Source: Microcoleus sp. Aus8_D1 (lineage in GTDB: Bacteria > Cyanobacteriota > Cyanobacteriia > Cyanobacteriales > Microcoleaceae). From it: a DNA stretch of 60,153 bases. The DNA lies in NCBI RefSeq assembly GCF_036702645.1, contig NZ_JAUBUO010000016.1:92186-152338 (forward strand). The letters run 5' to 3'. A program made the position numbers and the translations under genes. Positions 2,328 through 40,720 of the stretch are shown one piece after another; position 1 is the stretch's first letter, and each line of letters begins with the position of its first letter. The notes under the pieces are model-generated. The model saw nothing but the letters and a program-made list of their open reading frames with translations, was not told the origin of the DNA and did no database searches.

Positions 2328-4142
2328 ATGACAAACGTTCCTGTATCTCGCATTCGTAATTTTTCGATTATTGCTCACATCGACCACGGAAAATCCACTT
2401 TGGCCGATCGCCTGTTGCAGGCGACTGGAACTGTGCAAGCACGGGAGATGAAGGAGCAGTTTTTAGACAATATGGATATCGAACGCGAACGTGGCATTAC
2501 GATCAAGCTGCAAGCGGCTCGGATGAATTACACTGCCAAGGACGGTCAGGAGTACGTGCTGAACCTGATCGACACTCCCGGACACGTTGACTTCTCCTAC
2601 GAGGTTTCGCGATCGCTCGCTGCTTGCGAAGGGGCGCTGCTGGTGGTAGACGCATCTCAAGGCGTGGAAGCACAAACCTTGGCAAATGTCTACCTTGCCT
2701 TGGGAAACAATTTGGAAATTATTCCGGTTCTAAATAAAATTGACCTACCGGGAGCGGAACCGGAACGGGTAAAAGGGGAAATTGAAGAAATTATCGGTCT
2801 GGACTGTAGCGGGGCGATTGAGGCTTCGGCTAAGGAAGGAATTGGTATTGATGAGATTTTGGAGGCGATCGTCGAATTGGTGCCGCCGCCGCAGGATACT
2901 GTTGACAAACCGCTGCGGGCGCTAATTTTTGACAGTTATTACGATGCTTATCGCGGGGTAATTGTGTATTTCCGGGTGATGGACGGAAGTGTTAAAAAGG
3001 GCGATCGGGTGTTGTTGATGGTTTCGGGGAAGGAATATGTCATTGATGAATTGGGCATCCTGTCACCGACACAAGTACAAGTAGATGAATTGCACGCGGG
3101 GGAAGTTGGTTATCTAGGCGCGGCAATTAAGGCGGTAGCTGATGCTCGCGTCGGGGATACGATTACTTTGGTCAAAAAGCCTGCACCAGAGCCTTGGCCT
3201 GGTTATACGGAGGCTAAGCCGATGGTTTTTTGTGGCTTATTCCCGATCGATGCCGACCAATTTCCCGACTTGCGGGAAGCTTTGGAAAAACTGGAACTCA
3301 ACGATGCGGCGCTTTCCTACGAACCGGAAACTTCTAGCGCGATGGGATTTGGTTTCCGCTGCGGTTTCTTGGGTTTGCTGCACATGGAAATTGTGCAGGA
3401 AAGACTGGAAAGAGAATACAATTTGGATTTGATTGTTACGGCTCCTTCTGTGGTTTATCAAGTCACAACAATCAAGGGAGAAGTGTTAACAATTGACAAT
3501 CCGAGCCACTTGCCAGATCCTCAGTATCGGGAGAAGATTGAGGAACCTTACGTGCGGGTAGAAATGCTGTCGCCGGAAACTTATGTGGGCGCGCTGATGG
3601 AGTTATCTCAAAGTCGGCGGGGCATTTTTATGGATATGAAGTATCTGAGTCAGGGGCGGACTACCTTGGTTTACGAGTTACCTTTGGCGGAGGTGGTGAC
3701 GGACTTTTTCGATCAGATGAAATCGCGATCGCGCGGTTATGCGAGTATGGAGTATCACATCATCGGTTATCGCGAAAATCCGTTGGTGAAATTGGACATT
3801 TTAATTAATGGCGATCCGGTTGATGCTTTGGCGATGATCGTGCACCGGGATAAGGCTTACAATGTGGGGCGCGGCTTGACGGAGAAACTGAAGGAGTTGA
3901 TTCCCCGCCACCAGTTTAAGGTGCCGATTCAAGCGACTATTGGCGCTAAGGTGATTGCTTCGGAACATATTCCGGCTTTGCGGAAAGATGTGTTGGCGAA
4001 GTGTTACGGCGGCGATATTTCGCGGAAGAAGAAGTTGCTACAAAAGCAGGCGAAGGGTAAGAAGCGGATGAAGTCTGTTGGTACTGTGGATGTGCCGCAG
4101 GAGGCTTTTATGGCTGTGCTGAAGCTCGATCGCGATTCGTAA
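2328..4142 (+). CDS. lepA: Elongation factor 4 (LepA), translational GTPase
   Basis: [31 protein letters not shown]1 motif, [13 protein letters not shown], and the LepA-specific C-terminal domain. Start moved from the ORF-track 2280 to Met17, the canonical LepA N-terminus. Confidence 0.95.
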
Positions 4143-4672: not shown

Positions 4673-5728
4673 ATGGCGTCGCTCAAAGCATCCGAGGCAG
4701 GAATCGAAAAAATAAATATACGTTTTACAGACAAAGGCTGGAGTCGCCAAGACTTAGCCGATCGAGTTGTAATAGGGGAGGGCAAAAAGTCCAAGGAAGG
4801 GATTGATATTCAAGTTATTCATAAGTTTTTTACCCAGAAGAGTGTCAGCAGCCAGTATTTTGTGGGAATTTGCAAGGCTTTAGAGTTGGATTGGCAGGAA
4901 ATTCGAGAACCCAATGGAACGCCACCGCCCCCAATACTACCAAATCACAATCCCATCCCAGAAATAGAACAGCCAAATATCAAATACGATAATCCCTTTC
5001 GTCCGACAAGTGGCAAAATAGACGATCGCCGCTTTTTCTTTGGCAGACAGCGGGAAATTCGGCGGGTATTCGAGACTCTGAATAGTGGCAGTAGTGTAGC
5101 AATTGTTGGCGAAAGAGCGATCGGCAAAAGTTCTCTGCTACAAGCCATTTACCAACAAGCACCAAATCAACTCCGTCCTCCGCGCCAACCCATTTACCTC
5201 AACTTGCAAGATGTTTATGATGAAGATGATTTTTACTGTGCTTTGTGCAGCGAAGTCAATATAGATATAGCGAAGGGATATTTACTAAAACGGGCTTTAG
5301 AATCGCACCGACTGCTGTTGCTTTTAGATGAAGTTGAGAAAATGAACTGGAATGGATTTACTAACCAAATACGCGGTCAATTGCGGGGTTTAGCGGAGGG
5401 AACAAACGCACCTTTGCGTCTAGTTGTCGCCGCCTGCACCTCTCTCGATACGCTGTTTCCTGACAGTCAAGACCAAAATATGACATCTCCTTTCAAAGGA
5501 ATTTGCATTGAGGAAACTCTGAAGCGATGGGATGATGAAATCAGTCGCAAATTTATTGCAAGCCGCCTCCAGGCTGATTGGTTAACACCTGTTGCCCAAC
5601 CCGTGAGTTTTACAGAGGATGAAATTGCGAGTTTAATTGCTGAAAGTGGTGGCTATCCTCAGAAATTGATGCAGTTGTGCTATCAAACTTACGATCGCTA
5701 TCTTTGCGATCGATCCAATATTTTGTAG
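4673..5728 (+). CDS. XRE-type HTH domain fused to a minimal AAA-like/STAND-type P-loop NTPase
   Basis: N-terminus KGWSRQDLADRVV is a typical HTH_XRE helix, followed by a Pro-rich linker. FFGRQREIRRVFETL then Walker A GERAIGKSSLL and Walker B LLLLDEVEK. First in-frame ATG is at 4673 (the ORF track starts at TTG 4667). TATAAT at 4643-4648. Confidence 0.7.
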   Translation: MASLKASEAGIEKINIRFTDKGWSRQDLADRVVIGEGKKSKEGIDIQVIHKFFTQKSVSSQYFVGICKALELDWQEIREPNGTPPPPILPNHNPIPEIEQPNIKYDNPFRPTSGKIDDRRFFFGRQREIRRVFETLNSGSSVAIVGERAIGKSSLLQAIYQQAPNQLRPPRQPIYLNLQDVYDEDDFYCALCSEVNIDIAKGYLLKRALESHRLLLLLDEVEKMNWNGFTNQIRGQLRGLAEGTNAPLRLVVAACTSLDTLFPDSQDQNMTSPFKGICIEETLKRWDDEISRKFIASRLQADWLTPVAQPVSFTEDEIASLIAESGGYPQKLMQLCYQTYDRYLCDRSNIL

Positions 5729-6125
5729 GGGCAGGTTCACCAACAATAATTGTCGCCAACCAACAATTCTGATAAACCTGCCCCCACCCAACGACAAATC
5801 CCAATCTACCAATAACCAAATATCCAGTAGGGGCAGGTTCACCAACAATAATTGCCACCAACCAACAAATCTGATAAACCTGCCCCCACCCAACGATAAA
5901 TCCCAATCTACCAATAACCAAATATCCAGTAGGGGCAGGTTCGCCAACAATAATTGCCACCAACCGACAATTATCATAAACCTGCCCCCACCCAACGACA
6001 AATCCCAATCTACCAATAACCAAATATCCAGTAGGGGCAGGTTCGCCAACAATAATTGCCATTAACCAACAAATCTCATAAACCTGCCCTCACTCACCCA
6101 ACGACAAATCCCTATCTACCTTCTT
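5726..6125. repeat. Tandem array of four ~102-bp direct repeats. Each unit carries a 10-bp-stem hairpin, GGGGCAGGTT-(N38)-AACCTGCCCC
   Basis: Units start at 5726, 5828, 5930 and 6032 with a few substitutions. Lies in the intergenic region between the two NTPase genes. Open frames on the minus strand (5610..6062, 5633..6052) are repeat artefacts. Confidence 0.9.
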
Positions 6126-6162
6126 TTCAAACACTGAACGGTATTCGAGCATAATACATAGG

Positions 6163-6226
6163 CCGGGGCGGGTTTTTGAAATTGTCGATTTTTGGCAATG
6201 ATTGTTGGTGAACCCGCCCCTACGGA
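6163..6226. repeat. Inverted, diverged copy of the 102-bp unit hairpin, GGGGCGGGTT...AACCCGCCCC
   Basis: Reverse complement taggggcgggttcaccaacaatcattg matches the unit start taggggcaggttcaccaacaataattg. Confidence 0.7.
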
Positions 6227-6328
6227 AATAACGCTCGATCGACCTGAAATAATCAGTTACAAAATCAGTTGCCGAACTTCCTTCTGCTATATAACCAATC
6301 CTAAATTTTATTTATCTCCACCTATTTT

Positions 6329-8992
6329 ATGAATCAAAACCATCACCCCGTTCCTCGATTAGATTTAGCTCCCAAACTGAAGCGTCCTCTTTCTTTGTCG
6401 AATCCTTTAGATTACCTGCGATTGTTATATTGGGTGTTTTTCTTTCCTCAAGCTGTGCGGTGGTATGAGTTTATTTTTGGGGGTGAATCTAATTTAAAAG
6501 ATGCCAAAACGTGGCGAGAAAGGTGGGATTGGTTGCGTCAAAATCCAGTCCAGCGTCAGTTAATTTTGCAAGCTTTGATATTAATACTTGCTATCACTCT
6601 AGGTTTTAATATATTTTTTTTAGGCCTCAGTATTCCTATTAATTGGTGGGTTGTAGTGTTAGGCGTAGGGTTCCCTGTTGCCTATGGCGTGGGGTTGGCC
6701 GTGGAGTTCGGCGTAGCATCCGGTGTGGCATTCGGCATGGCGTTCGGCATGGTTTTGGGCATGACCTACGGCGCGGCCTCCGGCATAGCGTCCAGCGTGG
6801 CGTCCGGCCTGGGGTTAGGCCTGGCATTAGGTATTAGCTTGGGCGTGAGGTCAGGTGTGGGAGTGGGCGTGGCGTCTGCTGTAGGGATGGGTGCGGGGTT
6901 GGGTGTGGGTTTGGGCGTATTGTCCGGTGTGGGTTCCGGCGTGAGGTTTGGCGTGGCGTTGGGCTTGGGGTTAGGATTGGCGTCAGTCGTGGCGATCGCA
7001 CGTCCTGAAAATTGGCTGTTCGCTTTACCGTCTATCCTACTCCAGCGCCAACAGCAAAATAGACAATTTCCTCACATTACCCCGCTTCCCCTTCCTTACC
7101 TGTCTGCTCAAATAGCTAATTGGCTGAGGCGGGATTGGGAAACAGGATTGCACAACATTGACGAACTACTAAAATTTACTCTTCAGTTTATCCCGGTTAT
7201 TAAAGCTGTAAATTGCGTACTAGCAGAGACACCAAAAGACCAAATCATCTATCGCCTCGCTCAATTATCAGAAAATCCTTATGATTGGAATTTAGTGCGT
7301 TTTGCCTCAGCTTCTCTTAGTCAAAAAATGAAGTTAGAAGCAGTGGCAGGTTTTTTCAGCTTCATACCTTGGAAACAACAAATTCAAGCTCGTTTTCAAA
7401 CAGAAATTCGTTTAAATACTCCTGCCCGTGCCTCTGCCGCTGGTTTCTGGTATCTCCACGAACAGGAACCAGACAAAGCTACAGCAGCTTTTGCTGTAGT
7501 CCGAGATTTGCTTTATGGAGAGGAGATGTTTGCCTTAGCGCAAATTCTCACAAGTTGTCACCAAACAGCAGAACTAGCCGAGATTGCCGCCTTGAAACTG
7601 CCACCTTCCCCAAATCCACCTCTGCTTCGCGGGACTACTTGGGAAGCAATTGCCTCTCTGCGTCGGGTAATAGTCGATGTTCAACTTATCCAGAATAGTG
7701 TATCTCTTTTTGCCCGTTCTCTTGCCAGCAACCGAGCATTAGGTCAGCTTAAAACTATCTTAAATCAAGCTGGAGTTATACCTATATCTGAACGAAATTT
7801 AATTGTCAAAATAGTCAAAAAATGGTTAGAGATATTACTGCAATTCACAGTTGAAATAGGAGATATTTCAATTACTCAACCTGTCAGCAACCCCTATACC
7901 ATAGGCGATCCAGTCCAAGGCAATCAGTTTGTCGGCCGCGAAGACATCATCAGAGAGCTAGAGGAGTTGTGGGTACAGGGCGATCGCCTGCAATCTGTTG
8001 CTCTCTACGGTCATCGGCGGATGGGGAAAACTTCAATTTTGTTGAATGCTAGCAACTGCCTCGGAGCAAAGGTACAGGTAGCCTATGTCAATGTGTCGCT
8101 GGTGGCAGATTGTTCTCAGGGAGTCGGCGAATTGCTCATATTCGTTACCGATGCCATTGCCAAAACAGTCAAAATTGCACCTCCGGGCGATCGCGATTTA
8201 CTCGATTTGCCCTATATCACTTTTCGACGCTATATCGAACAAGTCATCGGAAATATAGAAGGCGGATTGATCGTTGCTTTAGACGAGTTTGAAAAAATCG
8301 AAGAATTGATCGACGCTGGGAAAATCGATCGCGATTTTATCGGTTTCTTGCGCGGCATGGTGCAAATGAGTTCTAAAATAGCCTTTGCGTTTGCCGGATT
8401 GCACACCTTAGACGAAATGACCGAGGATTATTTCAATCCTTTTTTTGCTAGCATTATCCCCATCCGAGTCGGTTTCCTGAGTTTGGGTGCAACTCGCCAA
8501 GTTTTAGCCAATCCCGATGATGATTTCCTCCTCGACTACAAACCGGAAGCACTCGATCGCATTTACGAACTAACAGGCGGCCAACCCTATCTCACGCAAT
8601 TAATCGGATTTCTATTAGTCCGCCACTACAACGACCAAGTATTTGAAATGGGACACCCCCGCGATCCAATGTTTAGCATAGAAGATGTGGAAACAGTCAT
8701 CAATGACCCGGATTTTTTCAGCAGAGGTCGCTACTATTTTACAGGAATTTGGGGTCAAGCAATGGAAGGTGCACCGGGACAACAGCAGATTTTAAGAGCA
8801 CTAGCACCTCACTTAGACGGAATGAATTTCGACAGGCTGAGTGCAGAAATAGGGATGGATAGAAAAAGTTTAGAGGAAGCATTAAAAACCCTGGAACGTC
8901 ACGATGTGGTTCAACAAAGTGATGGTTGCTACTGTATTAGTGTGGAACTATTTCGCCGTTGGGTTCAGATGTCATTGGGAGGGAACGGGTAA
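6329..8992 (+). CDS. Large membrane-anchored AAA-like/STAND-type NTPase. N-terminus has Gly/Ala/Val-rich small-residue TM helices; the C-terminal half carries an ORC/Cdc6-like P-loop ATPase
   Basis: Residues ~75-230 are hydrophobic GxxxG-rich repeats (GVGFPVAYGVGLAVEFGVASGVAFGMAFGMVLG...). Later come FVGREDIIRELEELW, Walker A GHRRMGKTSILLN and Walker B LIVALDEFEKI, typical of the cyanobacterial AAA-like domain family. Confidence 0.75.
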   Translation: MNQNHHPVPRLDLAPKLKRPLSLSNPLDYLRLLYWVFFFPQAVRWYEFIFGGESNLKDAKTWRERWDWLRQNPVQRQLILQALILILAITLGFNIFFLGLSIPINWWVVVLGVGFPVAYGVGLAVEFGVASGVAFGMAFGMVLGMTYGAASGIASSVASGLGLGLALGISLGVRSGVGVGVASAVGMGAGLGVGLGVLSGVGSGVRFGVALGLGLGLASVVAIARPENWLFALPSILLQRQQQNRQFPHITPLPLPYLSAQIANWLRRDWETGLHNIDELLKFTLQFIPVIKAVNCVLAETPKDQIIYRLAQLSENPYDWNLVRFASASLSQKMKLEAVAGFFSFIPWKQQIQARFQTEIRLNTPARASAAGFWYLHEQEPDKATAAFAVVRDLLYGEEMFALAQILTSCHQTAELAEIAALKLPPSPNPPLLRGTTWEAIASLRRVIVDVQLIQNSVSLFARSLASNRALGQLKTILNQAGVIPISERNLIVKIVKKWLEILLQFTVEIGDISITQPVSNPYTIGDPVQGNQFVGREDIIRELEELWVQGDRLQSVALYGHRRMGKTSILLNASNCLGAKVQVAYVNVSLVADCSQGVGELLIFVTDAIAKTVKIAPPGDRDLLDLPYITFRRYIEQVIGNIEGGLIVALDEFEKIEELIDAGKIDRDFIGFLRGMVQMSSKIAFAFAGLHTLDEMTEDYFNPFFASIIPIRVGFLSLGATRQVLANPDDDFLLDYKPEALDRIYELTGGQPYLTQLIGFLLVRHYNDQVFEMGHPRDPMFSIEDVETVINDPDFFSRGRYYFTGIWGQAMEGAPGQQQILRALAPHLDGMNFDRLSAEIGMDRKSLEEALKTLERHDVVQQSDGCYCISVELFRRWVQMSLGGNG

Positions 8993-9013
8993 ATAGTTAT
9001 GTTGGAAGCATCT

Positions 9014-9250
9014 CAAGCTCTGTAGGGTGTGGATCCATTGACAATTCTCAAGAAAAAAGCGACCATCTAATAGCGACGCACCTCTTTTTTTCAAGCTCTG
9101 TAGGGTGTGGATCCATTGACAATTCTCAAGAAAAAAGCGACCATCTAATAGCGACGCACCTCTTTTTTTCAAGCTCTGTAGGGTGTGGATCCATTGACAA
9201 TTCTCAAGAAAAAAGCGACCATCTAATAGCGACGCACCTGTTCTTTTCAA
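9014..9250. repeat. Tandem array of three 78-bp direct repeats, each ending in a T-run
   Basis: caagctctgtagggtgtggatccattgacaattctcaagaaaaaagcgaccatctaatagcgacgcacctcttttttt occurs at 9014, 9092 and 9170. ORFs 8959..9300 and 8972..9274 are artefacts of this array. Confidence 0.9.
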
Positions 9251-9382
9251 GAATCCAGGACACAAACCCAACATTTTTGTGGTATCAAGCTTTTTTATAA
9301 ACCGATTGGTAGGGTGAAGCGACTAAAGTCTGGAAGTGCGATCGCACTTCCACAGTGCTAATACCATTTCCGCCCCTTCCCT

Positions 9383-9706
9383 TCAAATCCCTTCTTCCTC
9401 TTCACCGCTAGACTCGCCTGAAAAAAGTAATTCTATATCCCGATAACCGCTGACTATTCTCACAATTTCAATATTTCCACTGACAGCTCGATAAAAAATC
9501 AAGTAATCTTCTACTAAAAAACTCCGCAAACCCAGCTCCAATTCATCCCGACTTCTCCCTATACTTGGAAAATCAACCAATAACTTGCACTGCTGCTTAA
9601 TCGCTTCCTTGAGTCTTTTCGCAGAATCCGGGTTAAACTGAGCAATATAGCGGACAATCTCTTTCAATTCACGCTTCGCTGAAGGTGCTAAAATATACCG
9701 AGTCAT
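9383..9706 (-). CDS. parE: Type II toxin, ParE/RelE family
   Basis: MTRYILAPSAKRELKEIVRYIAQFNPDSAKRL...YLIFYRAVSGNIEIVRIVSGYRD matches the ParE toxin fold pattern. Overlaps the upstream antitoxin gene by 1 nt. Confidence 0.8.
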   Translation of the reverse strand: MTRYILAPSAKRELKEIVRYIAQFNPDSAKRLKEAIKQQCKLLVDFPSIGRSRDELELGLRSFLVEDYLIFYRAVSGNIEIVRIVSGYRDIELLFSGESSGEEEEGI

Positions 9707-10014
9707 TACTTGACCTCCTCAGCTTGCTGCATTTGCGCCTCTATCCGACAAATATCTTCCTCGATTTCATCAAATACCTCTTCGCCATCAATCCCTTCAC
9801 CGCGATCTAATTCTTCTATCCCTACTCGAATTTTTTCCTTCAAGTCAGCAAGACGCTTCTCCTTAATGCGATCGCGCTCCCACAACAACCGCAAAGCTTC
9901 CCCCACCATCTCACTCGCTGAGGAATATTTACCTTTTTTTACCTGTTCTTGGATTAACCGTTCGAGTTCTGAAGTCAAAGATATATTCATCACAATTTGC
10001 TCCGCTATCGACAT
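9706..10014 (-). CDS. parD: Type II antitoxin, ParD family
   Basis: NISLTSELERLIQEQVKKGKYSSASEMVGEALRLLWERD is the ParD antitoxin signature. Start could instead be Met9 at 9990. Confidence 0.75.
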   Translation of the reverse strand: MSIAEQIVMNISLTSELERLIQEQVKKGKYSSASEMVGEALRLLWERDRIKEKRLADLKEKIRVGIEELDRGEGIDGEEVFDEIEEDICRIEAQMQQAEEVK

Positions 10015-10258
10015 TTTTATGATACCGCTTTTAATATCAGTTGCACAGTTTAATCCTTACTTTTTGGCAGCCTTAAGTAGGTAGGTGCAAATAAACTTTA
10101 CCGCTGGTTACAGAATGTGTATTGCTGTCATAACCCCTGCGATTGCTTCGTTTCACTGCGTTTCACTCGCAATGACATACATACATATTTTCCGACTCAT
10201 CTACTTAGCTCAAACGAAGTGCGTAGGCGTAGCCAGCCACAGGCATCGCCCAACCCAG

Positions 10259-10299
10259 CAAAAGTACGCGCGGCGCAGCTATCCCTCTTCGTGAATCGC
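10259..10299. repeat. Left 41-bp terminal inverted repeat of a small cassette
   Basis: aaaagtacgcgcggcgcagctatccctcttcgtgaatcgcc. Its perfect reverse complement lies at 11131..11171. Confidence 0.85.
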
Positions 10300-10326
10300 C
10301 CAACCCACCCGCCTCAACTCCCCAGA

Positions 10327-10524
10327 CTATTCCACCAAATCTTCGATCGAGAATTTCAGTAAATCACACAGCGCCTTCATCTGTACGGGGTAAAGCTTGG
10401 GTACGTGTCTGTCAGTCTCCCAGTTGATCACCGTCGATTGCACAACATGGCACGCCTTTGCCACTTGTATCCGAGTTAAACGGAGACTTTCACGTCGTTT
10501 TCTTAGCTTTTGTCCCAGCGTCAT
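10327..10524 (-). CDS. XRE-family HTH transcriptional regulator, 65 aa
   Basis: LGQKLRKRRESLRLTRIQVAKACHVVQSTVINWETDRHVP is a classic HTH_XRE. A divergent promoter region with three operator-like palindromes lies immediately upstream. Confidence 0.7.
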   Translation of the reverse strand: MTLGQKLRKRRESLRLTRIQVAKACHVVQSTVINWETDRHVPKLYPVQMKALCDLLKFSIEDLVE

Positions 10525-10540
10525 TATCTATCCCTCATGC

Positions 10541-10616
10541 AGTTGATTATATGTATTCAGTTGACTATATGTAGTCAACTGAAGATCTACATTAATTGAC
10601 TATATATAGTTAATTA
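10541..10616. promoter_or_regulatory. Three operator-like palindromes, TTGACTATAT(G/A)TAGTCAA type, in the divergent intergenic region
   Basis: agttgattatatgta (10541-10555), cagttgactatatgtagtcaactg (10557-10582) and taattgactatatatagttaatta (10593-10616). Probably binding sites for the adjacent XRE regulator. Confidence 0.45.
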
Positions 10617-10824
10617 TTTTAGGCAATTTTTGTCAAAAACTATTGACTTTATAGAAAGCCATTGGTAAAAATAGGAACTACAAACAACCTAATTTCTCTA
10701 GTCTTCTCTGAAATTAGGAACTAGACGCGCCAAGTCTGAAAAAAAGTCAAAAGCCAGTCCGCGCCCTCGACAAGCATTGAACTGGCTTTGGCGACCATTC
10801 CCGTGCAGAAAAATCCAACACTAA

Positions 10825-11052
10825 ATGGAGACCAACTTAATTATGCCTTACAAAGACCGCCTCAACAGGTGGCTGATAGTTCGTTTGCTGCCCAATATGC
10901 AGCGAATTACTGTAGCCCATTTTTTCAGGCATTCTGATGCTGACGGCCATCTGCGGATTATCCGACAGTTAATCCCGAATGCTCACTTTGTCATTGTGTT
11001 TAATGCTGATGTCAATCCTTACGCTGTTCCTAGCAGTAGCGAAAGCAGCTAG
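10825..11052 (+). CDS. Hypothetical 75-aa protein inside the IR-bounded cassette
   Basis: ORF divergent from the XRE gene; no recognisable motif. Confidence 0.3.
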   Translation: METNLIMPYKDRLNRWLIVRLLPNMQRITVAHFFRHSDADGHLRIIRQLIPNAHFVIVFNADVNPYAVPSSSESS

Positions 11053-11130
11053 AAGTTTGTCATAAAGGGCGATCGCACTTCTCGATCGCCCGATCGCCCT
11101 TTTCTGTCTTAGCTTAAACCAATTGCGAGG

Positions 11131-11171
11131 GCGATTCACGAAGAGGGATAGCTGCGCCGCGCGTACTTTTT
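11131..11171. repeat. Right 41-bp terminal inverted repeat of the cassette
   Basis: Perfect reverse complement of 10259..10299. Confidence 0.85.
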
Positions 11172-11238
11172 CGACAAAACTTACGCAACTTCTTGAGAGC
11201 GCAAAAACTCAGCAAGTCTATTTGTAGCATTTCGTAGG

Positions 11239-11272
11239 GGCAATCCCCCCGTGGTTGCCCCTATTTTTTTGA
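11239..11272 (+). terminator. Hairpin GGGGCAA-tccccccgtgg-TTGCCCC followed by a T-run; putative intrinsic terminator
   Basis: 7-bp stem then TATTTTTTT. The same core tccccccgtggttgcccc recurs at 40744..40762. Confidence 0.35.
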
Positions 11273-11283
11273 TCAACCCTAAA

Positions 11284-13491
11284 TCACACTCTCTTCTGAT
11301 TTTTACTCGGACTTTGTACTTGAGTGTACGACTCATTCGTAAAATAATAATGACTGTGCGGTTCATTCTTCGGACTCACCCCATTCACTACCATACCGAG
11401 TACGTGTTGACTAGATTTCTTTAACAAATCTTTAGCAAAAGCCACACTACCAGAATACAGCACTCCCGGCCGCGCCACCAATAAAATACCATCTGCCTTT
11501 TTACCCAGGATCAGAGCATCAGCAGCTACGTTCAAAGAAGGACTATCAATAACGACTAAATCGTAATTACTCGAAAATTGTTTAATTAATGAAGTTATCC
11601 GCTGCGATTCCAATAGAGCCATTGGGTTAGGCGGAATCACCCCACAACTGAGCACATCTAAATTATCCATCACTTGGGCGATCGCACTTTTCAACTCAGC
11701 TTGTCCCACAATCACATTGCTCAAACCCACCTGATTAGCAAGTTCCCAAATTCGGTGCTGAACCGGGCGGTGCATATCCGCATCTACCAGCAAAACCCTT
11801 CGTCCCAATTGAGCCACCGTCGCAGCCAAATTAGCAGCTACCGTAGACTTCCCCTCATGCGGGAGTGAACTGCTAACCACAATCACCTTTAGTTGTGTAT
11901 CCGAACTAAGAAACCTCAGATTTGCTTGAAGCATCCGGTAAGCAGCACTGACATTAGTGTGAGGAGTATCTTTCACAACAATTTGTCGAGAAGATGGTTC
12001 CGAATCCCCAGCACCAGAACTAGGCCGCAGGAAATTTCGCCAGCTATTTTTTTGAAATTTATGAGCAGGAATCACGCCCAGCAAGGTGAGTCCAAACAAT
12101 TCCTTTGCTTCCTCAATAGTTTTGACAGATTTGTCTTGAGATTCTAAAGCTATAGCCGTAGCTATACCTAGCAAGGTTCCCAGCAAACTACCCGAAACTA
12201 GCAATAGAGATTTGCGAGAAGCAATTGGTTCTTGAGGAACACTAGCTTTTTGGATAATGCGAGCGTTACCCACTTTCTGACTTTCTGCGATCCGAATTTC
12301 CTGAAGTTTTTTTTGCAATTCTGCATAAGCAGATTCGGTTTCTTGCAGTTTTCTGGATAGCTCGCGCTGTTCTTTCTCCAGCTTGGGCAAATTATGTACC
12401 CGCTGCTTGTAGCTAGCTAGCGCGTTTGATAAAATAGAAACTCGCTCAGCTAAACCTTGCCGCTCTACATCTACTTTGACAAACTCTTCGATCAGTCTTG
12501 GCTTCACTTCTCCTATCTGCAAATTTCCGTCATACCCTTGTTGCTGACCACCCGGAACCTGCTGTATTTGCTTGTCCAGTAGAGCTTTCAGGGTAGATTT
12601 CTTAGTTTCTAGCCTAGTTATTATAGGTGAAGTATCCAGATAGCGATTTTGCTCGAGTTTCAACTGCCGTTCTATCTGCTGGTATTCTTTCAAAGCTTCC
12701 TGCACAGCACTAGACTGGCTGAGGTTGCTCGCAGTTAATGCCTGCTGCGGATTCATCTGCAATTCTTTTTGGAATGCTTCGGACTTAGCACTTGCTTTGA
12801 CAAAATCCGACTTAGCGTCATCTATTTGGCTTTCTAAACGCGCCATAACTGACACGGCAGATCTAGCTTCTTCTTCTAAATTAACTACTTTATTGCCTTC
12901 TTTAAATCTGCTCAGTTCTGCTGCGGCTTTCCGCATTGAGTTTTCAGCAGTAGGTAATTTTTTTTCAATAAACTGGCGGACAGCCACAGCTTCTAGTCGA
13001 TTGACTTGGACATTATTTTCTATATAAAAATCCATCATGTTCTTGACAACATCTGCGGCTTCTTTGGATTTTTTACTTTTGTAAGAAACCGTCAGGATAT
13101 CTGCTCCCCGAATAGTTGTCACTGTCAGGTTTTTCAAAAAGCTTTTGCTTGTTAGAGGGTCGCCTTTTTGATCCTTGAGGTTGAGCTTGTTTATGGTCTT
13201 TGCTGCAAGTTCAACAGAACGAATTAGCTCGATTTCGGTAGTCAAGGGGTTGCTTTGCTCTGCTGCTGGAGTCAACTGTCCTATTTCTTTTCCCAATTCT
13301 GTTAAAGCAGAGGCAGGATTTGTCTTTTTAAATAAAAGCTTGCCTTCGGCTTCATAGACAGGCTTTTCCTTGAGTACACTATAGCTAGTTAATGCGAGAA
13401 CCGAGGCAAATACGACTAAGGCGGGCAGCCAGCGCCGCTTGATAATTTGCCAGTATTGCTGAAACCCTATACCAGTTTCTGCGGACTCCAT
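11284..13491 (-). CDS. wzc: Polysaccharide chain-length determinant / tyrosine autokinase (Wzc/ExoP/GumC family)
   Basis: N-terminal TM followed by Wzz-like coiled-coil periplasmic region. C-terminal P-loop kinase VIVVSSSLPHEGKSTVAANLA...LLVDADMHRP and Y-rich tail. Confidence 0.85.
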   Translation of the reverse strand: MESAETGIGFQQYWQIIKRRWLPALVVFASVLALTSYSVLKEKPVYEAEGKLLFKKTNPASALTELGKEIGQLTPAAEQSNPLTTEIELIRSVELAAKTINKLNLKDQKGDPLTSKSFLKNLTVTTIRGADILTVSYKSKKSKEAADVVKNMMDFYIENNVQVNRLEAVAVRQFIEKKLPTAENSMRKAAAELSRFKEGNKVVNLEEEARSAVSVMARLESQIDDAKSDFVKASAKSEAFQKELQMNPQQALTASNLSQSSAVQEALKEYQQIERQLKLEQNRYLDTSPIITRLETKKSTLKALLDKQIQQVPGGQQQGYDGNLQIGEVKPRLIEEFVKVDVERQGLAERVSILSNALASYKQRVHNLPKLEKEQRELSRKLQETESAYAELQKKLQEIRIAESQKVGNARIIQKASVPQEPIASRKSLLLVSGSLLGTLLGIATAIALESQDKSVKTIEEAKELFGLTLLGVIPAHKFQKNSWRNFLRPSSGAGDSEPSSRQIVVKDTPHTNVSAAYRMLQANLRFLSSDTQLKVIVVSSSLPHEGKSTVAANLAATVAQLGRRVLLVDADMHRPVQHRIWELANQVGLSNVIVGQAELKSAIAQVMDNLDVLSCGVIPPNPMALLESQRITSLIKQFSSNYDLVVIDSPSLNVAADALILGKKADGILLVARPGVLYSGSVAFAKDLLKKSSQHVLGMVVNGVSPKNEPHSHYYFTNESYTQVQSPSKNQKRV

Positions 13492-14047: not shown

Positions 14048-16855
14048 ATGAACCGGATAATCAGAAAAATCAGCCAAGGTTTGCTGAGATTGAGGAACCG
14101 TCATTTTTTGTTGATTGACACGATTTGTTTGGCGATCGCCCCCGTATTGGCGCTAGCTATTCGTTTAGATGATTCTTTTACTCTTGCACCCTACTTGTAC
14201 GGGCTAGCGGTAGCTACGGTATTGTTCGTTGCAGTAAAGCTAACTGTATTTTATAGCTTCGGGTTCTACAGGCGTTACTGGCGGTATGCCGGTATTGACG
14301 AATTGGCACAAATAGCGGTGCTGATCGGTGTGGCTTTAGCCTTAGAAACTATACTGTTCCAAGGGCTGGCTCACCTGAGTATTTTTGGGGTCAACAAACT
14401 GCCGCGATCGCTGCCACTGCTCGATGCGATGCTGAGCTTTTTGTTTATTGGCGGCATTCGTTTCAGCATTCCCGCGATCGAAAGGTTGAGCCAAAGACGC
14501 CGGAAATTTCAGCGGTGCGATCGCTTGCTGATAGTCGGTGCAGGGAGTGCAGGCATTTCTTTGATGCAGAAAATGCAGCGGAGTTCCCAGCTAGGACTTT
14601 ACCCCGCAGCTTTCATTGACGACGACCCGAAAAAGCTCAACTTGCGGATTCGCGGAGTAAGTGTAGTAGGCGATCGCCATCAAATTCCCCAAATAGTTAG
14701 GTCGTTAAATATCTCTAAAGTTATCATTGCCATACCCACAGCCCCGGGAAGAGAAATTAGAGAAATCGTAGAAATTTGTCAGTCAATTGGAGTGCCAACC
14801 AGTACACTGCCCGGTATCAATGAAATCATCAACTGCCGCGTCAGCTTGGGCAGCGTCAGGGAAGTACAAATTGAGGACTTGCTCCGTCGCGAATCCATCC
14901 AAACTGATGTCGAGAAAGTTTCCGAATTTATCATAGGCAAAAAAGTTCTAATTACCGGAGCTGGTGGCTCGATCGGCAGCGAACTTTGCCGACAAGTTTT
15001 AAAATCAGAACCTGCGGAAATGATCCTTGTAGGACACGGAGAAAACTCTGTATTCAACATTCAACAAGAACTAAACCGGGTGATTTCCCAACTCCAAAAA
15101 GCAGGCGAACTCAAAATACATATCCCTCAATTAACAACATTCATAGCCGATATTCGCTTTGTCGATCGCTTAGAGTACGTGTTTGACAAAGTTAGACCAG
15201 ATATTGTGTTTCACGCGGCGGCTCACAAACACGTACCCATGATGGAATTAAACCCGCCTGAAGCCATTACTAATAATGTGCGGGGAACAAAAAACCTGTT
15301 GGATATGGCATTGAAGTACGATGTCGAACATTTTGTGATGATTTCGACTGACAAGGCCGTGAATCCAACTAACATTATGGGCGCCAGCAAAAGAGTTGCA
15401 GAAATGCTGGTGCTGCAAGCTGCAAAAAAAAGCGGGAAACCCTTTGTAGTTGTACGTTTTGGCAATGTTCTCGGCAGTCGCGGCAGCGTCGTCCCCACCT
15501 TCAAACGGCAAATTGCTGAAGGCGGCCCGATCACCATTACCCATCCAGATATCAGCCGGTATTTCATGACAATTCCCGAAGCAGTGCAACTGCTGTTGCA
15601 GGCGGCAGTGCTCGGTGACGGGGGTCAAGTATTCATGCTCGACATGGGGCAGCCAGTCAGAATTGTTGACTTGGCAAAAGATTTAATTCGCCTTTCGGGA
15701 TATGAGTTGGGCAAAGACATTGATATTGTCTTCACGGGGCTGCGGCCTGGAGAAAAATTGTTTGAAGAACTGTTTATTCCCGGGGAAACCTACGACAAAA
15801 CTGAACATGAAAAAATTCTGATTCTCGGCAATGCCAGCCGCATTGTCCGAGAAAATATTGAGCAGGACATAGAAGCCCTTTGTCAAGCAGCTCATCGAAA
15901 TGATGCCAATTTAATTGTGTTTTTGCTAGAGCAGTTAGTGCCTGAATACATACCGGGATATTCAACTGTTAATTTGCACGCCAATATAGCCCAAGAAAAA
16001 ACGGATATCGCAGAAAATTCTCCGCAGGTTCAGACAAATTCCAACAGTGTTGTATCTGTTGACGTAGAGAATGATTTGAGGCAAGCTCTTAAACTTCAGG
16101 AGTTTCGCCTTTACTATCAACCGATAGTATGCCTGGAAACTCATAAGATTACAGGTTTTGAGGGGCTGCTGCGCTGGCAGCACCCGACTCGTGGATTTCT
16201 TGTCCCAGACGAGTTTATTCCAGCGGCAGAAGCCACGGGGTTGATTGTGCCTATTGGCGAGTGGGTGTTGCGTCAAGCTTGCAGCCAGTTGCGAATTTGG
16301 CAACAGCGATTTGATATTGACGATCCCTTAACAGTCAGCGTGAATCTGACTAGCAAACAGTTTTTCCAACCTGATTTAAGCGAGGTACTCTACCAAATTC
16401 TAACGGAAACTAAGCTTGATGCTTCTAGTTTAAAGATAGAGATTCCGGAGCAAGTTGCGATCGACAATTCTGAGCTAGCTACCGCTGTGTTTGTTAAACT
16501 CAAAGCTTTAGGGGTGCAATTGCAAATCGATCACTGCGGTTTGAGCGATCGATCTTTAACTCGCCTCCACCGCTTGATACGCATGAAGTATGGGAAGTTC
16601 GACAGTTTGAAGCTAGATTGTTCTGTGGTCAGCGGGCTGGAGGGTAATGACGCTAACTTAGAAACTCTCCAAAAAATTATTGCGATCGCGCAGGAGCTAG
16701 ATATGGGTATGATTGCAACTGGGGTGGAAACCTGCGAGCAAATAGCTCAGCTCAAAGCGCTGAAATGCGTCTACGGCCAGGGATACTTTTTCTCGAAGCC
16801 CGTGGAAGGCTCTAAGATAGAGACATTGATTGGCACTATGACTGCTCATAGTTAA
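14048..16855 (+). CDS. Fusion of a membrane-bound UDP-sugar 4,6-dehydratase (WbpM/CapD/PglF Polysacc_synt_2) with a C-terminal degenerate EAL (c-di-GMP phosphodiesterase-like) domain
   Basis: Four N-terminal TM helices and Rossmann LITGAGGSIGSEL. The EAL domain begins ~16090 (QEFRLYYQPIVCL...FEGLLRWQHP). The DDFGTGYSS motif is replaced by DHCGLSDRS and EAL by EGL. Confidence 0.85.
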   Translation: MNRIIRKISQGLLRLRNRHFLLIDTICLAIAPVLALAIRLDDSFTLAPYLYGLAVATVLFVAVKLTVFYSFGFYRRYWRYAGIDELAQIAVLIGVALALETILFQGLAHLSIFGVNKLPRSLPLLDAMLSFLFIGGIRFSIPAIERLSQRRRKFQRCDRLLIVGAGSAGISLMQKMQRSSQLGLYPAAFIDDDPKKLNLRIRGVSVVGDRHQIPQIVRSLNISKVIIAIPTAPGREIREIVEICQSIGVPTSTLPGINEIINCRVSLGSVREVQIEDLLRRESIQTDVEKVSEFIIGKKVLITGAGGSIGSELCRQVLKSEPAEMILVGHGENSVFNIQQELNRVISQLQKAGELKIHIPQLTTFIADIRFVDRLEYVFDKVRPDIVFHAAAHKHVPMMELNPPEAITNNVRGTKNLLDMALKYDVEHFVMISTDKAVNPTNIMGASKRVAEMLVLQAAKKSGKPFVVVRFGNVLGSRGSVVPTFKRQIAEGGPITITHPDISRYFMTIPEAVQLLLQAAVLGDGGQVFMLDMGQPVRIVDLAKDLIRLSGYELGKDIDIVFTGLRPGEKLFEELFIPGETYDKTEHEKILILGNASRIVRENIEQDIEALCQAAHRNDANLIVFLLEQLVPEYIPGYSTVNLHANIAQEKTDIAENSPQVQTNSNSVVSVDVENDLRQALKLQEFRLYYQPIVCLETHKITGFEGLLRWQHPTRGFLVPDEFIPAAEATGLIVPIGEWVLRQACSQLRIWQQRFDIDDPLTVSVNLTSKQFFQPDLSEVLYQILTETKLDASSLKIEIPEQVAIDNSELATAVFVKLKALGVQLQIDHCGLSDRSLTRLHRLIRMKYGKFDSLKLDCSVVSGLEGNDANLETLQKIIAIAQELDMGMIATGVETCEQIAQLKALKCVYGQGYFFSKPVEGSKIETLIGTMTAHS

Positions 16856-39039: not shown

Positions 39040-39300
39040 AAAAAGTACGCGCGGCGCAGCATCCCGTAGGGCATCGCCCTGTTATTGATTAGCCCTCGCA
39101 AAAGTACGCGCGGCCCAGCTATCCCCCAAGGCTGAATTGCCCAACCCACCCCGCCTCAACTCCCCAGACTATTCTACCAAATCGGCGATCGAGAACTTCA
39201 GTAAGTCACACAGCGCCTTCATCTGTGCTGGGTAAAGCTTGGGTAGGTGTCTGTCTTCGAGTCGATCGCCGTGGACTGCACAACATTATACGCTTCTACT
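39040..39300 (-). pseudogene. Degraded second copy of the cassette end: duplicated terminus plus XRE regulator remnant
   Basis: ~85% nucleotide identity to 10258..10465 in the same orientation. Terminus aaaagtacgcgcggc occurs twice. An internal indel destroys the HTH reading frame. Confidence 0.6.
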
Positions 39301-39781: not shown

Positions 39782-40720
39782 ATGAGAATTTTAGTCACAG
39801 GCGGTGCGGGTTTCATCGGTTCCCATCTGATCGATCGCTTAATGGCCCAAGGACACGAGGTAGTCTGCCTGGATAACTTTTACACCGGGACTAAGCGCAA
39901 TATCCTCAAATGGCTGGACAACCCCTATTTTGAGCTGATCCGCCACGACATCACGGAACCCATTCGGTTAGAGGTAGATCAGATTTACCATCTGGCTTGT
40001 CCGGCTTCGCCAGTACACTATCAGTTCAACCCCGTCAAGACAATCAAAACGAATGTCATCGGGACACTAAATATGCTGGGATTGGCGAAACGGGTAAAAG
40101 CAAGATTTTTTCTGGCTTCCACATCAGAAGTTTACGGCGATCCGGATGTCCATCCCCAAACAGAAGACTATCGCGGCAACGTTAATTGTATCGGTATTCG
40201 GAGCTGTTACGACGAGGGGAAGCGAGTAGCTGAAACCCTATCTTTTGACTACCACCGCCAAAATGGGGTAGACATTCGAGTTGTACGAATTTTTAATACC
40301 TACGGCCCGCGAATGTTAGAAAATGATGGCCGAGTTGTCAGCAATTTTATTGTTCAAGCTTTGCGCAATCAACCGCTGACTGTGTATGGCGATGGTTCCC
40401 AAACACGGAGTTTTTGCTACGTTTCTGATTTGGTGGAAGGATTTATGCGCTTGATGAATAGCGACGAAATCGGGCCGATGAATTTGGGGAATCCCGGCGA
40501 ATACACTATCTTGGAACTGGCCCAGAAAATTCAAAACATGATTAATCCTGGGGCGGAAATCATCTTCAAACCGCTGCCACAAGACGATCCAAAACAGCGA
40601 CAACCGGATATTACTCGTGCTAAAAGTTGGTTGGGGTGGGAGCCAACTATTCCGCTGGATCAAGGTTTAGAGTTGACTGTGAAAGATTTTCGCGATCGTA
40701 TCGAGGGAAACCAAAAGTAG
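39782..40720 (+). CDS. uxs: UDP-glucuronate decarboxylase (UDP-xylose synthase, extended SDR)
   Basis: [20 protein letters not shown]...[10 protein letters not shown]...[14 protein letters not shown]...[11 protein letters not shown] is strongly UXS-like. Confidence 0.9.

Follow-up and report, generated by a model that had tools for sequence, protein, structure and literature searches.

The stretch of DNA analyzed here (the window) comprises 60,153 nucleotides of Microcoleus sp. Aus8_D1 (contig NZ_JAUBUO010000016.1, positions 92,186–152,338). It contains a pair of small, divergently oriented genes, one for a repressor of the XRE family with a helix-turn-helix (HTH) domain and the other for a small protein of a large uncharacterized cyanobacterial family, and the pair is enclosed by the two arms of an inverted repeat (Table 1). 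An inverted-repeat search of the window gave arms of 42 nt that are 100% complementary and 827 nt apart. A sequence-only reading of this DNA had described perfect 41-bp repeats bounding a 913-bp mobile cassette; the repeats are indeed perfect, but their length is 42 nt and the arm-to-arm span is 911 bp. The arm 42-mer occurs nowhere else in the window, even with up to three mismatches tolerated (expected number, 0). Both arms are associated with HIP1 sites (GCGATCGC), of which the window, with a G+C content of 42.7%, contains 43. The genome is thus rich in HIP1, and it falls within the Microcoleus/Oscillatoria nigro-viridis group. The account that merits considerable confidence is that each arm is a copy of one tiny cyanobacterial repeat of dispersed occurrence, that the gene pair between them is resident, and that this pair is a two-gene module maintained by selection.

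Table 1. Features of the gene-pair locus and related copies elsewhere in the window (positions are those of the window).
Feature	Position	Strand	Details
Third small insertion	10224..10244	+	21 nt, TAGGCGTAGCCAGCCACAGGC; exactly between the 3rd and 4th bases of the next HIP1 leftward; L008 has intact GTGCGATCGCCC there
Left arm	10260..10301	+	one copy of the ~40-nt HIP1-splitting short dispersed repeat, AAAAGTACGCG|GCGCAGCTATCCCTCTTCGTGA|ATCGCCC
XRE-family HTH repressor gene	10327..10524	-	65 aa; Pfam HTH_31, HTH_3
Operator-like 18-nt palindrome (predicted)	10543-10560	.	degenerate
Operator-like 18-nt palindrome (predicted)	10561-10578	.	TTGACTA-TATG-TAGTCAA
Operator-like 18-nt palindrome (predicted)	10596-10613	.	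TTGACTATATATAGTTAA
Promoter-like site (consensus scan only)	10626 to 10599	-	TTGCCT-16-TATAGT; second hexamer within the third operator
Promoter-like site (consensus scan only)	10643-10672	+	TTGACT-18-AAAAAT
Leader hairpin upstream of the small-protein gene	10746..10792	+	GUCAAAAGCCAGU ... ACUGGCUUUGGC; invariant in Microcoleus copies; predicted in the minimum-free-energy fold
Small-protein gene	10843..11052	+	69 aa (75 aa from ATG 10825); large uncharacterized cyanobacterial family
HIP1-based hairpin followed by CCCTTTTCTG	11064..11102	+	inside the arms; -20.4 kcal/mol, z=-3.8; inverted repeat I4
Right arm	11129..11170	-	second identical repeat copy, opposite orientation
Further repeat-family copy	39041-39079	+	
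Further repeat-family copy	39100-39141	+	
Decayed 3' XRE-gene fragment	39136..39297	-	direct orientation with the intact gene 29 kb upstream

Two relatives contain the same locus without the arms, namely a contig of a Microcoleus-type assembly (L008) and a metagenome contig (L006). L008 shares with the window a flank encoding ParE and ParD (window 9381–10075, L008 1874–2568; 90% identity) as well as the gene pair itself (window 10295–11128, L008 2610–3453; 91% identity). At the position of the left arm, however, L008 carries an intact HIP1, AAAAAGTGCGATCGCCCAACCCA (AAAAAGTGCGATCGCCC), relative to which the window shows a net gain of 25 nt; both relatives read AAAA(A)GTGCGATCGCCC there, i.e., an unsplit HIP1. 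L006 shares with the window the upstream gene (887 aa in the window, 932 aa in L006), the gene pair (87–90% identity), and ~100 nt of the right flank (GCAAAAACTCAGCAA.TCTATTTGTAGCATTTC.TAGGGGCAATCCC). Its HIP1 is unsplit at both arm positions, the counterpart of the right arm being GCGATCGCTCTTTTGG, with the common flank lying further right. The microhomology AAAAG.GCGATCGC is already present at both empty sites. Thus, the empty sites of L008 and L006 keep the gene pair and are missing only ~25 nt per arm, and the module has the same orientation relative to the common flanks in L006, L008, and the window. Since the module sits at the same place next to unsplit HIP1 sites in these relatives, the arms came after the module, each as a small insertion of its own. 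Copies of the gene pair in the PCC 7112-type context are likewise without any arms.

The third small insertion, to the left of the left arm, resembles the repeat family in sequence (GCGTAGC..CC..AGG), with no further copies of it in the 279 kb of cyanobacterial DNA compared. Adjoining this region, ~133 nt that separate ParD from the HIP1 cluster (window positions 10076–10211) are lacking in L008 and have a TTA direct repeat at their bounds. This segment has weak terminal inverted repeats (AGTAGGTAGG / GTAGATGAGT) and the look of a miniature inverted-repeat transposable element (MITE); the same 279 kb contained no other copy of it.

The arm sequence belongs to a dispersed family. A scan for its 20-nt core, AAAAGTACGCGCGGCNCAGC, in one genome per species (185,579 species) recovered 24 loci, 19 of them in Microcoleus, Microcoleaceae, and other filamentous or unclassified cyanobacteria; a filamentous genome named Phorm 6 is among the matches. 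The other five are non-cyanobacterial and come from unrelated phyla; their number agrees with the about four chance matches calculated for 19 specified bases in 2 × 596 Gb. Each of the 19 cyanobacterial loci has a single exact-core match in an unrelated context, with further degenerate copies only in L018 and L032. None of the 19 lies beside an XRE/small-protein gene pair, and neither whole units nor pairs of arms recur among them. Per genome, one or two exact-core matches were obtained, i.e., the copy number is apparently low, and the core had no match in viral contigs. The conserved unit measures ~40 nt and consists of AAAAGTACGCGCGGCGCAGCTATCC, a variable stretch of 7–10 nt (often a small palindrome, C.TAGGG), and AATCGCC, beyond which the flanks are unrelated among loci. 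Its consensus is AAAAGTACGCGCGGCGCAGCTATCCCGTAGGGAATCGCC, of which the insert represents about GCGCAGCTATCCCGTAGGGA, and the unit is located inside HIP1 palindromes (GCG^ATCGC). A metagenome scan for the variable half specific to the window yielded two solo variants with an intact GCG...ATCGC frame, AAAAGTGCG|TTAAGCGCAGCTATCCCTCTTCAGGA|ATCGCCC. In total, members of the family turned up at more than 20 loci unrelated to one another, and its orientation relative to neighboring genes is inconsistent at loci other than this one. As a separate observation, one of the loci with degenerate copies (L018, Microcoleus sp. AR_TQ3_B6) contains a dense array of 16 transfer RNA genes within 2.3 kb (5177–7468), and the spacers of this array hold copies of the small repeat at 5794–5836, 6053–6081, and 6826–6875.

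These comparisons show how a perfect inverted repeat most likely arose around the genes. Before the insertions, the locus already contained the gene pair, flanked left and right by extended HIP1 motifs (AAAAGTGCGATCGCC-like) in opposite orientations. One repeat copy then entered each extended site, and the shorter, 21-nt relative entered the next HIP1 leftward. A perfect inverted repeat results once two identical copies face opposite ways, and no cassette needs to transpose. Because conserved flanks travel with the insert (~10 nt at one end, 7 nt at the other), a copying process that works through recombination or repair at HIP1 seems to fit better than cut-and-paste by a transposase. Moreover, the identity between the arms ends exactly where the unit of the repeat family ends, which fits two copies of an element rather than a segmental inverted duplication.

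The mobile cassette of the sequence-only reading would be a non-autonomous element, in which a transposase from elsewhere recognized the 42-nt arms and moved the XRE/small-protein pair as a unit. Long, perfect inverted repeats do stand at both termini, the gene pair is found in at least two genomic contexts among Microcoleus genomes, and decayed XRE fragments adjoin copies of the repeat. Yet, what the empty sites with common flanks are missing is ~25 nt per side and not the unit, the PCC 7112-type copies are armless, and the arm sequence occurs solo at other loci, never paired around cargo. The left flank CAACCCAGC and the right flank TCGACAAAA contain no direct repeat, and hence no target-site duplication, and no transposase or recombinase gene was detected among the eight larger flanking open reading frames (ORFs) scanned in the window. 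A cassette is therefore very unlikely. Of the two signs that the sequence-only reading proposed to look for, more copies of the arms exist in other genomes, as solo copies, and a target-site duplication is absent at this locus; the converse case, in which the repeats would be absent elsewhere and merely a local terminator or palindrome, fails as well, since the repeat exists elsewhere as a family of its own. A role as a terminator or insulator under selection has nonetheless to be weighed. Relative to transcription, the two arms are oriented alike, each of them 3' of its gene, so that both transcripts would read GGGCGAU...GCGCGUACUUUU, and at the outer ends of both arms the scan found a weak hairpin with CTTTT after it. 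However, the arm folds as RNA no better than shuffled sequences (z=0.3; 0.02 for the family consensus), and the repeat lacks a consistent orientation to genes at other loci, which together make a terminator role unlikely. In addition, a strong HIP1 hairpin (z=-3.8), the likely terminator of the small-protein gene, already precedes the arm and the relatives function without arms, so the chance that the arms are functional 3' elements is slight. Even less credit can be given to the idea that the arms are crossover sites of a site-specific invertase or RecA, making the 827-bp segment a phase switch. Perfect 42-nt inverted repeats could recombine in principle and the segment has two predicted promoters, but both genes, the operators, and the terminators are wholly internal, and flipping would change nothing for the genes. 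The modules of L006 and L008 share one orientation relative to the common flanks, the eight scanned ORFs include no recombinase gene, and the arm family is dispersed without any link to inversion.

A single insertion followed by copy-correction deserves somewhat more weight, although it too is improbable. Here, the second arm would have been made from the first by gene conversion or by a short inverted duplication between the oppositely oriented HIP1 motifs. The arms agree at 42 of 42 positions, including the variable half TCTTCGTGA, which is absent from all other copies, and the microhomology at both empty sites was in place beforehand. On the other side, the related variants TCTTCAAGA, TCTTCAGGA, and TCTTCATGA at unrelated loci indicate that a subfamily is dispersing, which makes two hits from one master copy plausible.

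Several points weigh against the account of two independent insertions beside a resident module. As the exact variable half TCTTCGTGA was found in the two arms only, one insertion plus conversion and two insertions are inseparable. All four full copies of the family in the window adjoin the XRE gene or an XRE fragment, which could reflect a closer link between repeat and module than a simple target preference. Owing to CG repeats, the point at which the arms entered HIP1 can be placed only to within ~2 nt, and the first HIP1 base at the arms reads A instead of G. The module is also found in more than one context: in the PCC 7112-type copies it is flanked by Uma2 and an ABC transporter, and in the window, L006, and L008 it borders a variable polysaccharide locus. 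The source genome lies outside the collections searched, which returned no exact match to either protein or to the 42-mer, and the genome-wide repeat counts and the search for other paired copies refer to other genomes only. Finally, the promoters assigned to the module are matches to consensus sequences.

Among described elements, the closest in behavior is SDR5, a HIP1-inserting small dispersed repeat (SDR) of Nostocaceae (Elhai et al. 2008, Genome Res 18:1484, as described in PMC4390886, PMC5861425, and bioRxiv 10.64898/2026.06.24.733823), which inserts precisely between nucleotides 3 and 4 of HIP1 (PMC4390886). The inserts at this locus are similarly very small, 21 nt at 10224–10244 and 22–26 nt within the ~40-nt unit of the arms, within the ~21–27 nt of such dispersed modules, and the copies are dispersed, non-coding, and intergenic. 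The GCG^ATCGC split is exact for the 21-nt insertion in comparison to L008 and for the copies in L033, L034, and L008:22; the arms are compatible with it within the ~2-nt ambiguity. In contrast to SDR5, the repeat occurs in Microcoleus, a member of Oscillatoriales, whereas SDR or SDR-like repeats have been reported to be absent outside Nostocaceae (PMC5861425). Conserved flanks (AAAAGTAC..., ...AATCGCC) move with its insert, and its copy number is low, with one or two exact-core matches per genome. Judged by published descriptions rather than by sequence, the arm repeat works like SDR5, and it may or may not be SDR5 itself. The resemblance of the locus to a MITE, cargo-carrying ones included, extends to a sub-kilobase unit, perfect terminal inverted repeats, and no internal transposase. 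It differs in that the whole unit is not repeated, no target-site duplication is present, the empty sites are missing the arms only, and each arm is a complete member of a family of solo repeats.

Between the arms, the XRE gene encodes little more than an HTH domain. The protein matches Pfam HTH_31 (E=3.6e-9, 37.2 bits, cut-off 27) and HTH_3 (E=1.6e-5, 25.3 bits, cut-off 23), together with transcriptional repressor families of PHROGs, and has no match at E≤0.01 among PDB sequences. The region separating it from the small ORF is 300 nt long and contains three operator-like sites, which are the only matches in the window (0.11 expected). These results agree with the sequence-only reading as far as a divergent XRE/small-ORF pair with palindromic operators is concerned. 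The first two sites are kept in all Microcoleus copies compared, whereas the third is found only in the long-intergenic type and is missing in PCC 7112-type copies; in the short-intergenic type, the palindromes also overlap the first hexamer of the promoter-like site of the small gene. A search of positions 9000–12000 against Rfam at E≤1 returned only a chance microRNA match on the operators. The XRE gene shows ratios of nonsynonymous to synonymous substitution rates (dN/dS) of 0.02–0.18 among Microcoleus copies, and the small ORF shows ratios of 0.08–0.67 (median about 0.17); judged from these values, both genes are under purifying selection. In one copy (L004, 3268–4000), the XRE frame is apparently disrupted (no gene is called, and the alignment contains a 1-nt insertion), next to an intact small ORF.

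The small ORF most likely starts at its second ATG, to judge from its homologs. Most of these begin with M-P/S/T-Y. The Thermocoleostomius gene has its upstream ATG in another frame but conserves ATGGAGAC, including the ribosome-binding GGAG. The close homologs number 41, and those with names come from assemblies of Microcoleus or Microcoleus-related cyanobacteria. When 1.84 billion representative proteins were searched with a profile, 485 clusters, defined at 50% identity, were recovered at E≤1e-3 and 145 at E≤1e-10. The named members belong to Leptolyngbyaceae, Thermocoleostomius, Egbenema (two copies in one genome), Coleofasciculus, Nostoc, and Tolypothrix, and their annotation is hypothetical throughout; the consensus sequence of the family reads M.Y..RL.PW..VRLLPN.QR..VARFR.RSDAEG.L..LRRL.P.A.F..VFD. 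The 73 family members tested matched no model of Pfam or NCBIfam, and neither PADLOC nor PHROGs contained a match for the small protein, in keeping with the initial description of a 75-aa protein without recognizable function. Its predicted fold is β-β-α-β, with a mean predicted local distance difference test (pLDDT) score of 81.5. No relatives of the module were detected in 2.9 million viral contigs with two protein alignments, at the sensitivity of that scan.

The leader of the small gene contains a hairpin whose position is conserved more widely than its sequence. Hairpins with different stems lie at the same position in Nostoc (GGCGUUAGUG/CGCUAACGCC), Coleofasciculus (GCGUUAGU/ACUAACGC), and also Thermocoleostomius; further coordinates are 2425–2475 in L035, 2433–2470 in L037, and 2433–2470 in L040. 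A ribosome-binding context of the AUGGAGAC type follows the hairpin in all lineages. The leader hairpin has no Rfam match, and it may represent an undescribed cis-regulatory RNA element. The second hairpin, downstream of the gene at 11064–11102, is conserved in L006, L007, and L008 and is likely the terminator of the small-protein gene.

In all five lineages whose context was examined, the small gene is divergent from a gene for a small DNA-binding protein. The partner is of the XRE type in Microcoleus, Nostoc sp. 106C, and Coleofasciculus and of the RHH_5 type in Thermocoleostomius and Egbenema. Neighbors in the loci examined include ParDE, MqsA-like, RelB-like, PIN/DUF433, Uma2, IS605 OrfB, and XisHI. 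A plausible mode of action is that the XRE dimer binds the 18-nt palindromes overlapping the second hexamer of the minus-strand promoter-like site and thereby represses both itself and the small gene. The messenger RNA of the latter would begin with the structured leader, which may add post-transcriptional control or stability, and the β-β-α-β protein would be the regulated output. Given that the DNA-binding partner is interchangeable (XRE or RHH) and that toxin–antitoxin genes are among the neighbors, the small protein would most likely be a tightly repressed effector, toxin-like or antagonizing a regulator. The immunity or addiction module proposed by the sequence-only reading is still a live reading; the pair lies among toxin–antitoxin genes both here and in the loci examined from other lineages.

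In the strict form of this reading, the small protein would be a toxin that the XRE (or RHH) protein both represses and neutralizes. This is possible but rather doubtful. Similar to type II toxin–antitoxin systems such as HigBA and ParDE (survey in PMC2701414), the module consists of two small genes with an XRE or RHH DNA-binding partner and palindromic operators, and it resides in accessory islands beside genuine toxin–antitoxin pairs. Furthermore, the partner is swapped between XRE and RHH, as among antitoxins, the genomic location is patchy, and the islands are rich in toxin–antitoxin genes, with several copies of the module per genome in Egbenema. However, the two genes are divergent and not co-transcribed as an operon in any of the lineages examined, and no known toxin family or fold was matched by the small protein. 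With its 65 aa, the XRE protein amounts to the DNA-binding domain itself, which leaves no room for a neutralizing, toxin-binding extension, and the intact small ORF next to the apparently disrupted XRE frame of L004 would be odd if XRE were an antitoxin.

A similar, and equally modest, weight may be given to a regulatory small protein like those of the transcription factor–small ORF (TF-smORF) modules of linear plasmid-like phages. In these modules, which resemble one another in logic and not in sequence, an XRE-type transcription factor controls an adjoining gene for a domain-less protein of ~60–80 aa; they are borne on prophages, with the factor as an activator and the phage cI repressor as the target that the small protein inactivates (Silpe et al. 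2023, PMC10432266). The locus shares with them an XRE gene adjoining a gene for a small domain-less protein, the control of one by the other being suggested by the operators. It differs in its chromosomal location, away from phage genes, and in the lack of relatives among the 2.9 million viral contigs at the sensitivity of the scan, and its operator layout suggests repression. Indeed, its neighbors are lepA, ParDE, Wzc, and polysaccharide genes, and the small protein is without a PHROGs match, so that a prophage setting is not apparent. The arrangement is also reminiscent of lambda cI/Cro, as a small HTH repressor and a small divergent second gene share an intergenic region with three related operators. 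Yet, the second protein of the present pair is without an HTH (its predicted fold being β-β-α-β), there is no prophage context, and the third operator is missing in PCC 7112-type copies.

The differing contexts of the module imply that it was duplicated or relocated in the past. Such movement probably took place by recombination in a HIP1-rich junction, and it did not involve the 42-nt arms. Remnants of XRE genes are found in the vicinity. Window positions 39098–39286 are 86.5% identical to 10258–10448, the left end of the arm-bounded segment, and also match L006 and L008; the decayed XRE fragment at 39136–39297 and the intact gene bracket a 28-kb Wzc/polysaccharide segment. In L008, a decayed 3' XRE fragment follows directly after the module (3453–3523; 62 nt at 3462–3523), in direct orientation.

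The surroundings of the locus are variable. Relative to L006, the window has ParDE inserted leftward and ~21 kb of extra polysaccharide genes rightward. The intact ParD (102 aa)/ParE (107 aa) pair occupies positions 9383–10014, immediately left of the feature; L008 has this pair and L006 lacks it, which marks it as an accessory insertion. Rightward, the neighbors are a Wzc-type tyrosine kinase and a long polysaccharide gene cluster. Further to the left, the 887-aa ORF (6329–8992) has no Pfam domain and weak matches to PADLOC PDC-S27 (E about 2e-4), and it is kept beside the module in L006 (932 aa). Between this gene and ParE, at 9013–9251, a 78-bp unit is present in 3.1 tandem copies (98% matches) and contains a cyanobacterial repeat motif of the GTAGGGTG...GCACC type. 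At 14048–16855, a 935-aa ORF fuses a CapD-like Polysacc_synt_2 domain (E=5.5e-117) to a C-terminal EAL cyclic di-GMP phosphodiesterase domain (E=8e-61), and on these domain matches it is an unusual coupling of sugar-nucleotide chemistry to cyclic di-GMP turnover. In L006, an epimerase/dehydratase gene contains an insertion of ~980 nt with a LAGLIDADG_3 match (6989–7973), which looks like an intein or homing-endonuclease insertion; the gene of the window (39782–40720) is uninterrupted, the corresponding site being at about 40204–40216.

Collectively, the arms represent a HIP1-splitting small repeat outside Nostocaceae, and the gene pair is a member of an unannotated module; neither is categorically new. 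The combination of an XRE or RHH protein with a β-β-α-β protein and a structured leader could nevertheless be a previously undescribed two-gene switch across cyanobacteria, which could be toxin–antitoxin-like or could act through a small protein that antagonizes some regulator. It is conceivable, if somewhat doubtful, that the locus presents such a switch and/or a recently active, HIP1-targeted, ultra-small mobile element outside Nostocaceae. In that case, the arms and the 21-nt insert would provide clean filled/empty pairs for asking how ultra-small elements and HIP1 join in recombination. If related to SDR5, the repeat would extend the known range of this element beyond Nostocaceae. For scans that seek MITEs or invertible segments, the locus is a caution: in HIP1-rich cyanobacteria, independent hits of tiny repeats in palindromes can create long perfect inverted repeats around genes. 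Experiments on small proteins and gene switches have a tractable target in the large unannotated family, whose members in filamentous cyanobacteria consistently come with a small repressor and a structured leader, and the matched filled and empty HIP1 sites in Microcoleus offer material on the spread of sub-50-nt elements and on the role of HIP1.

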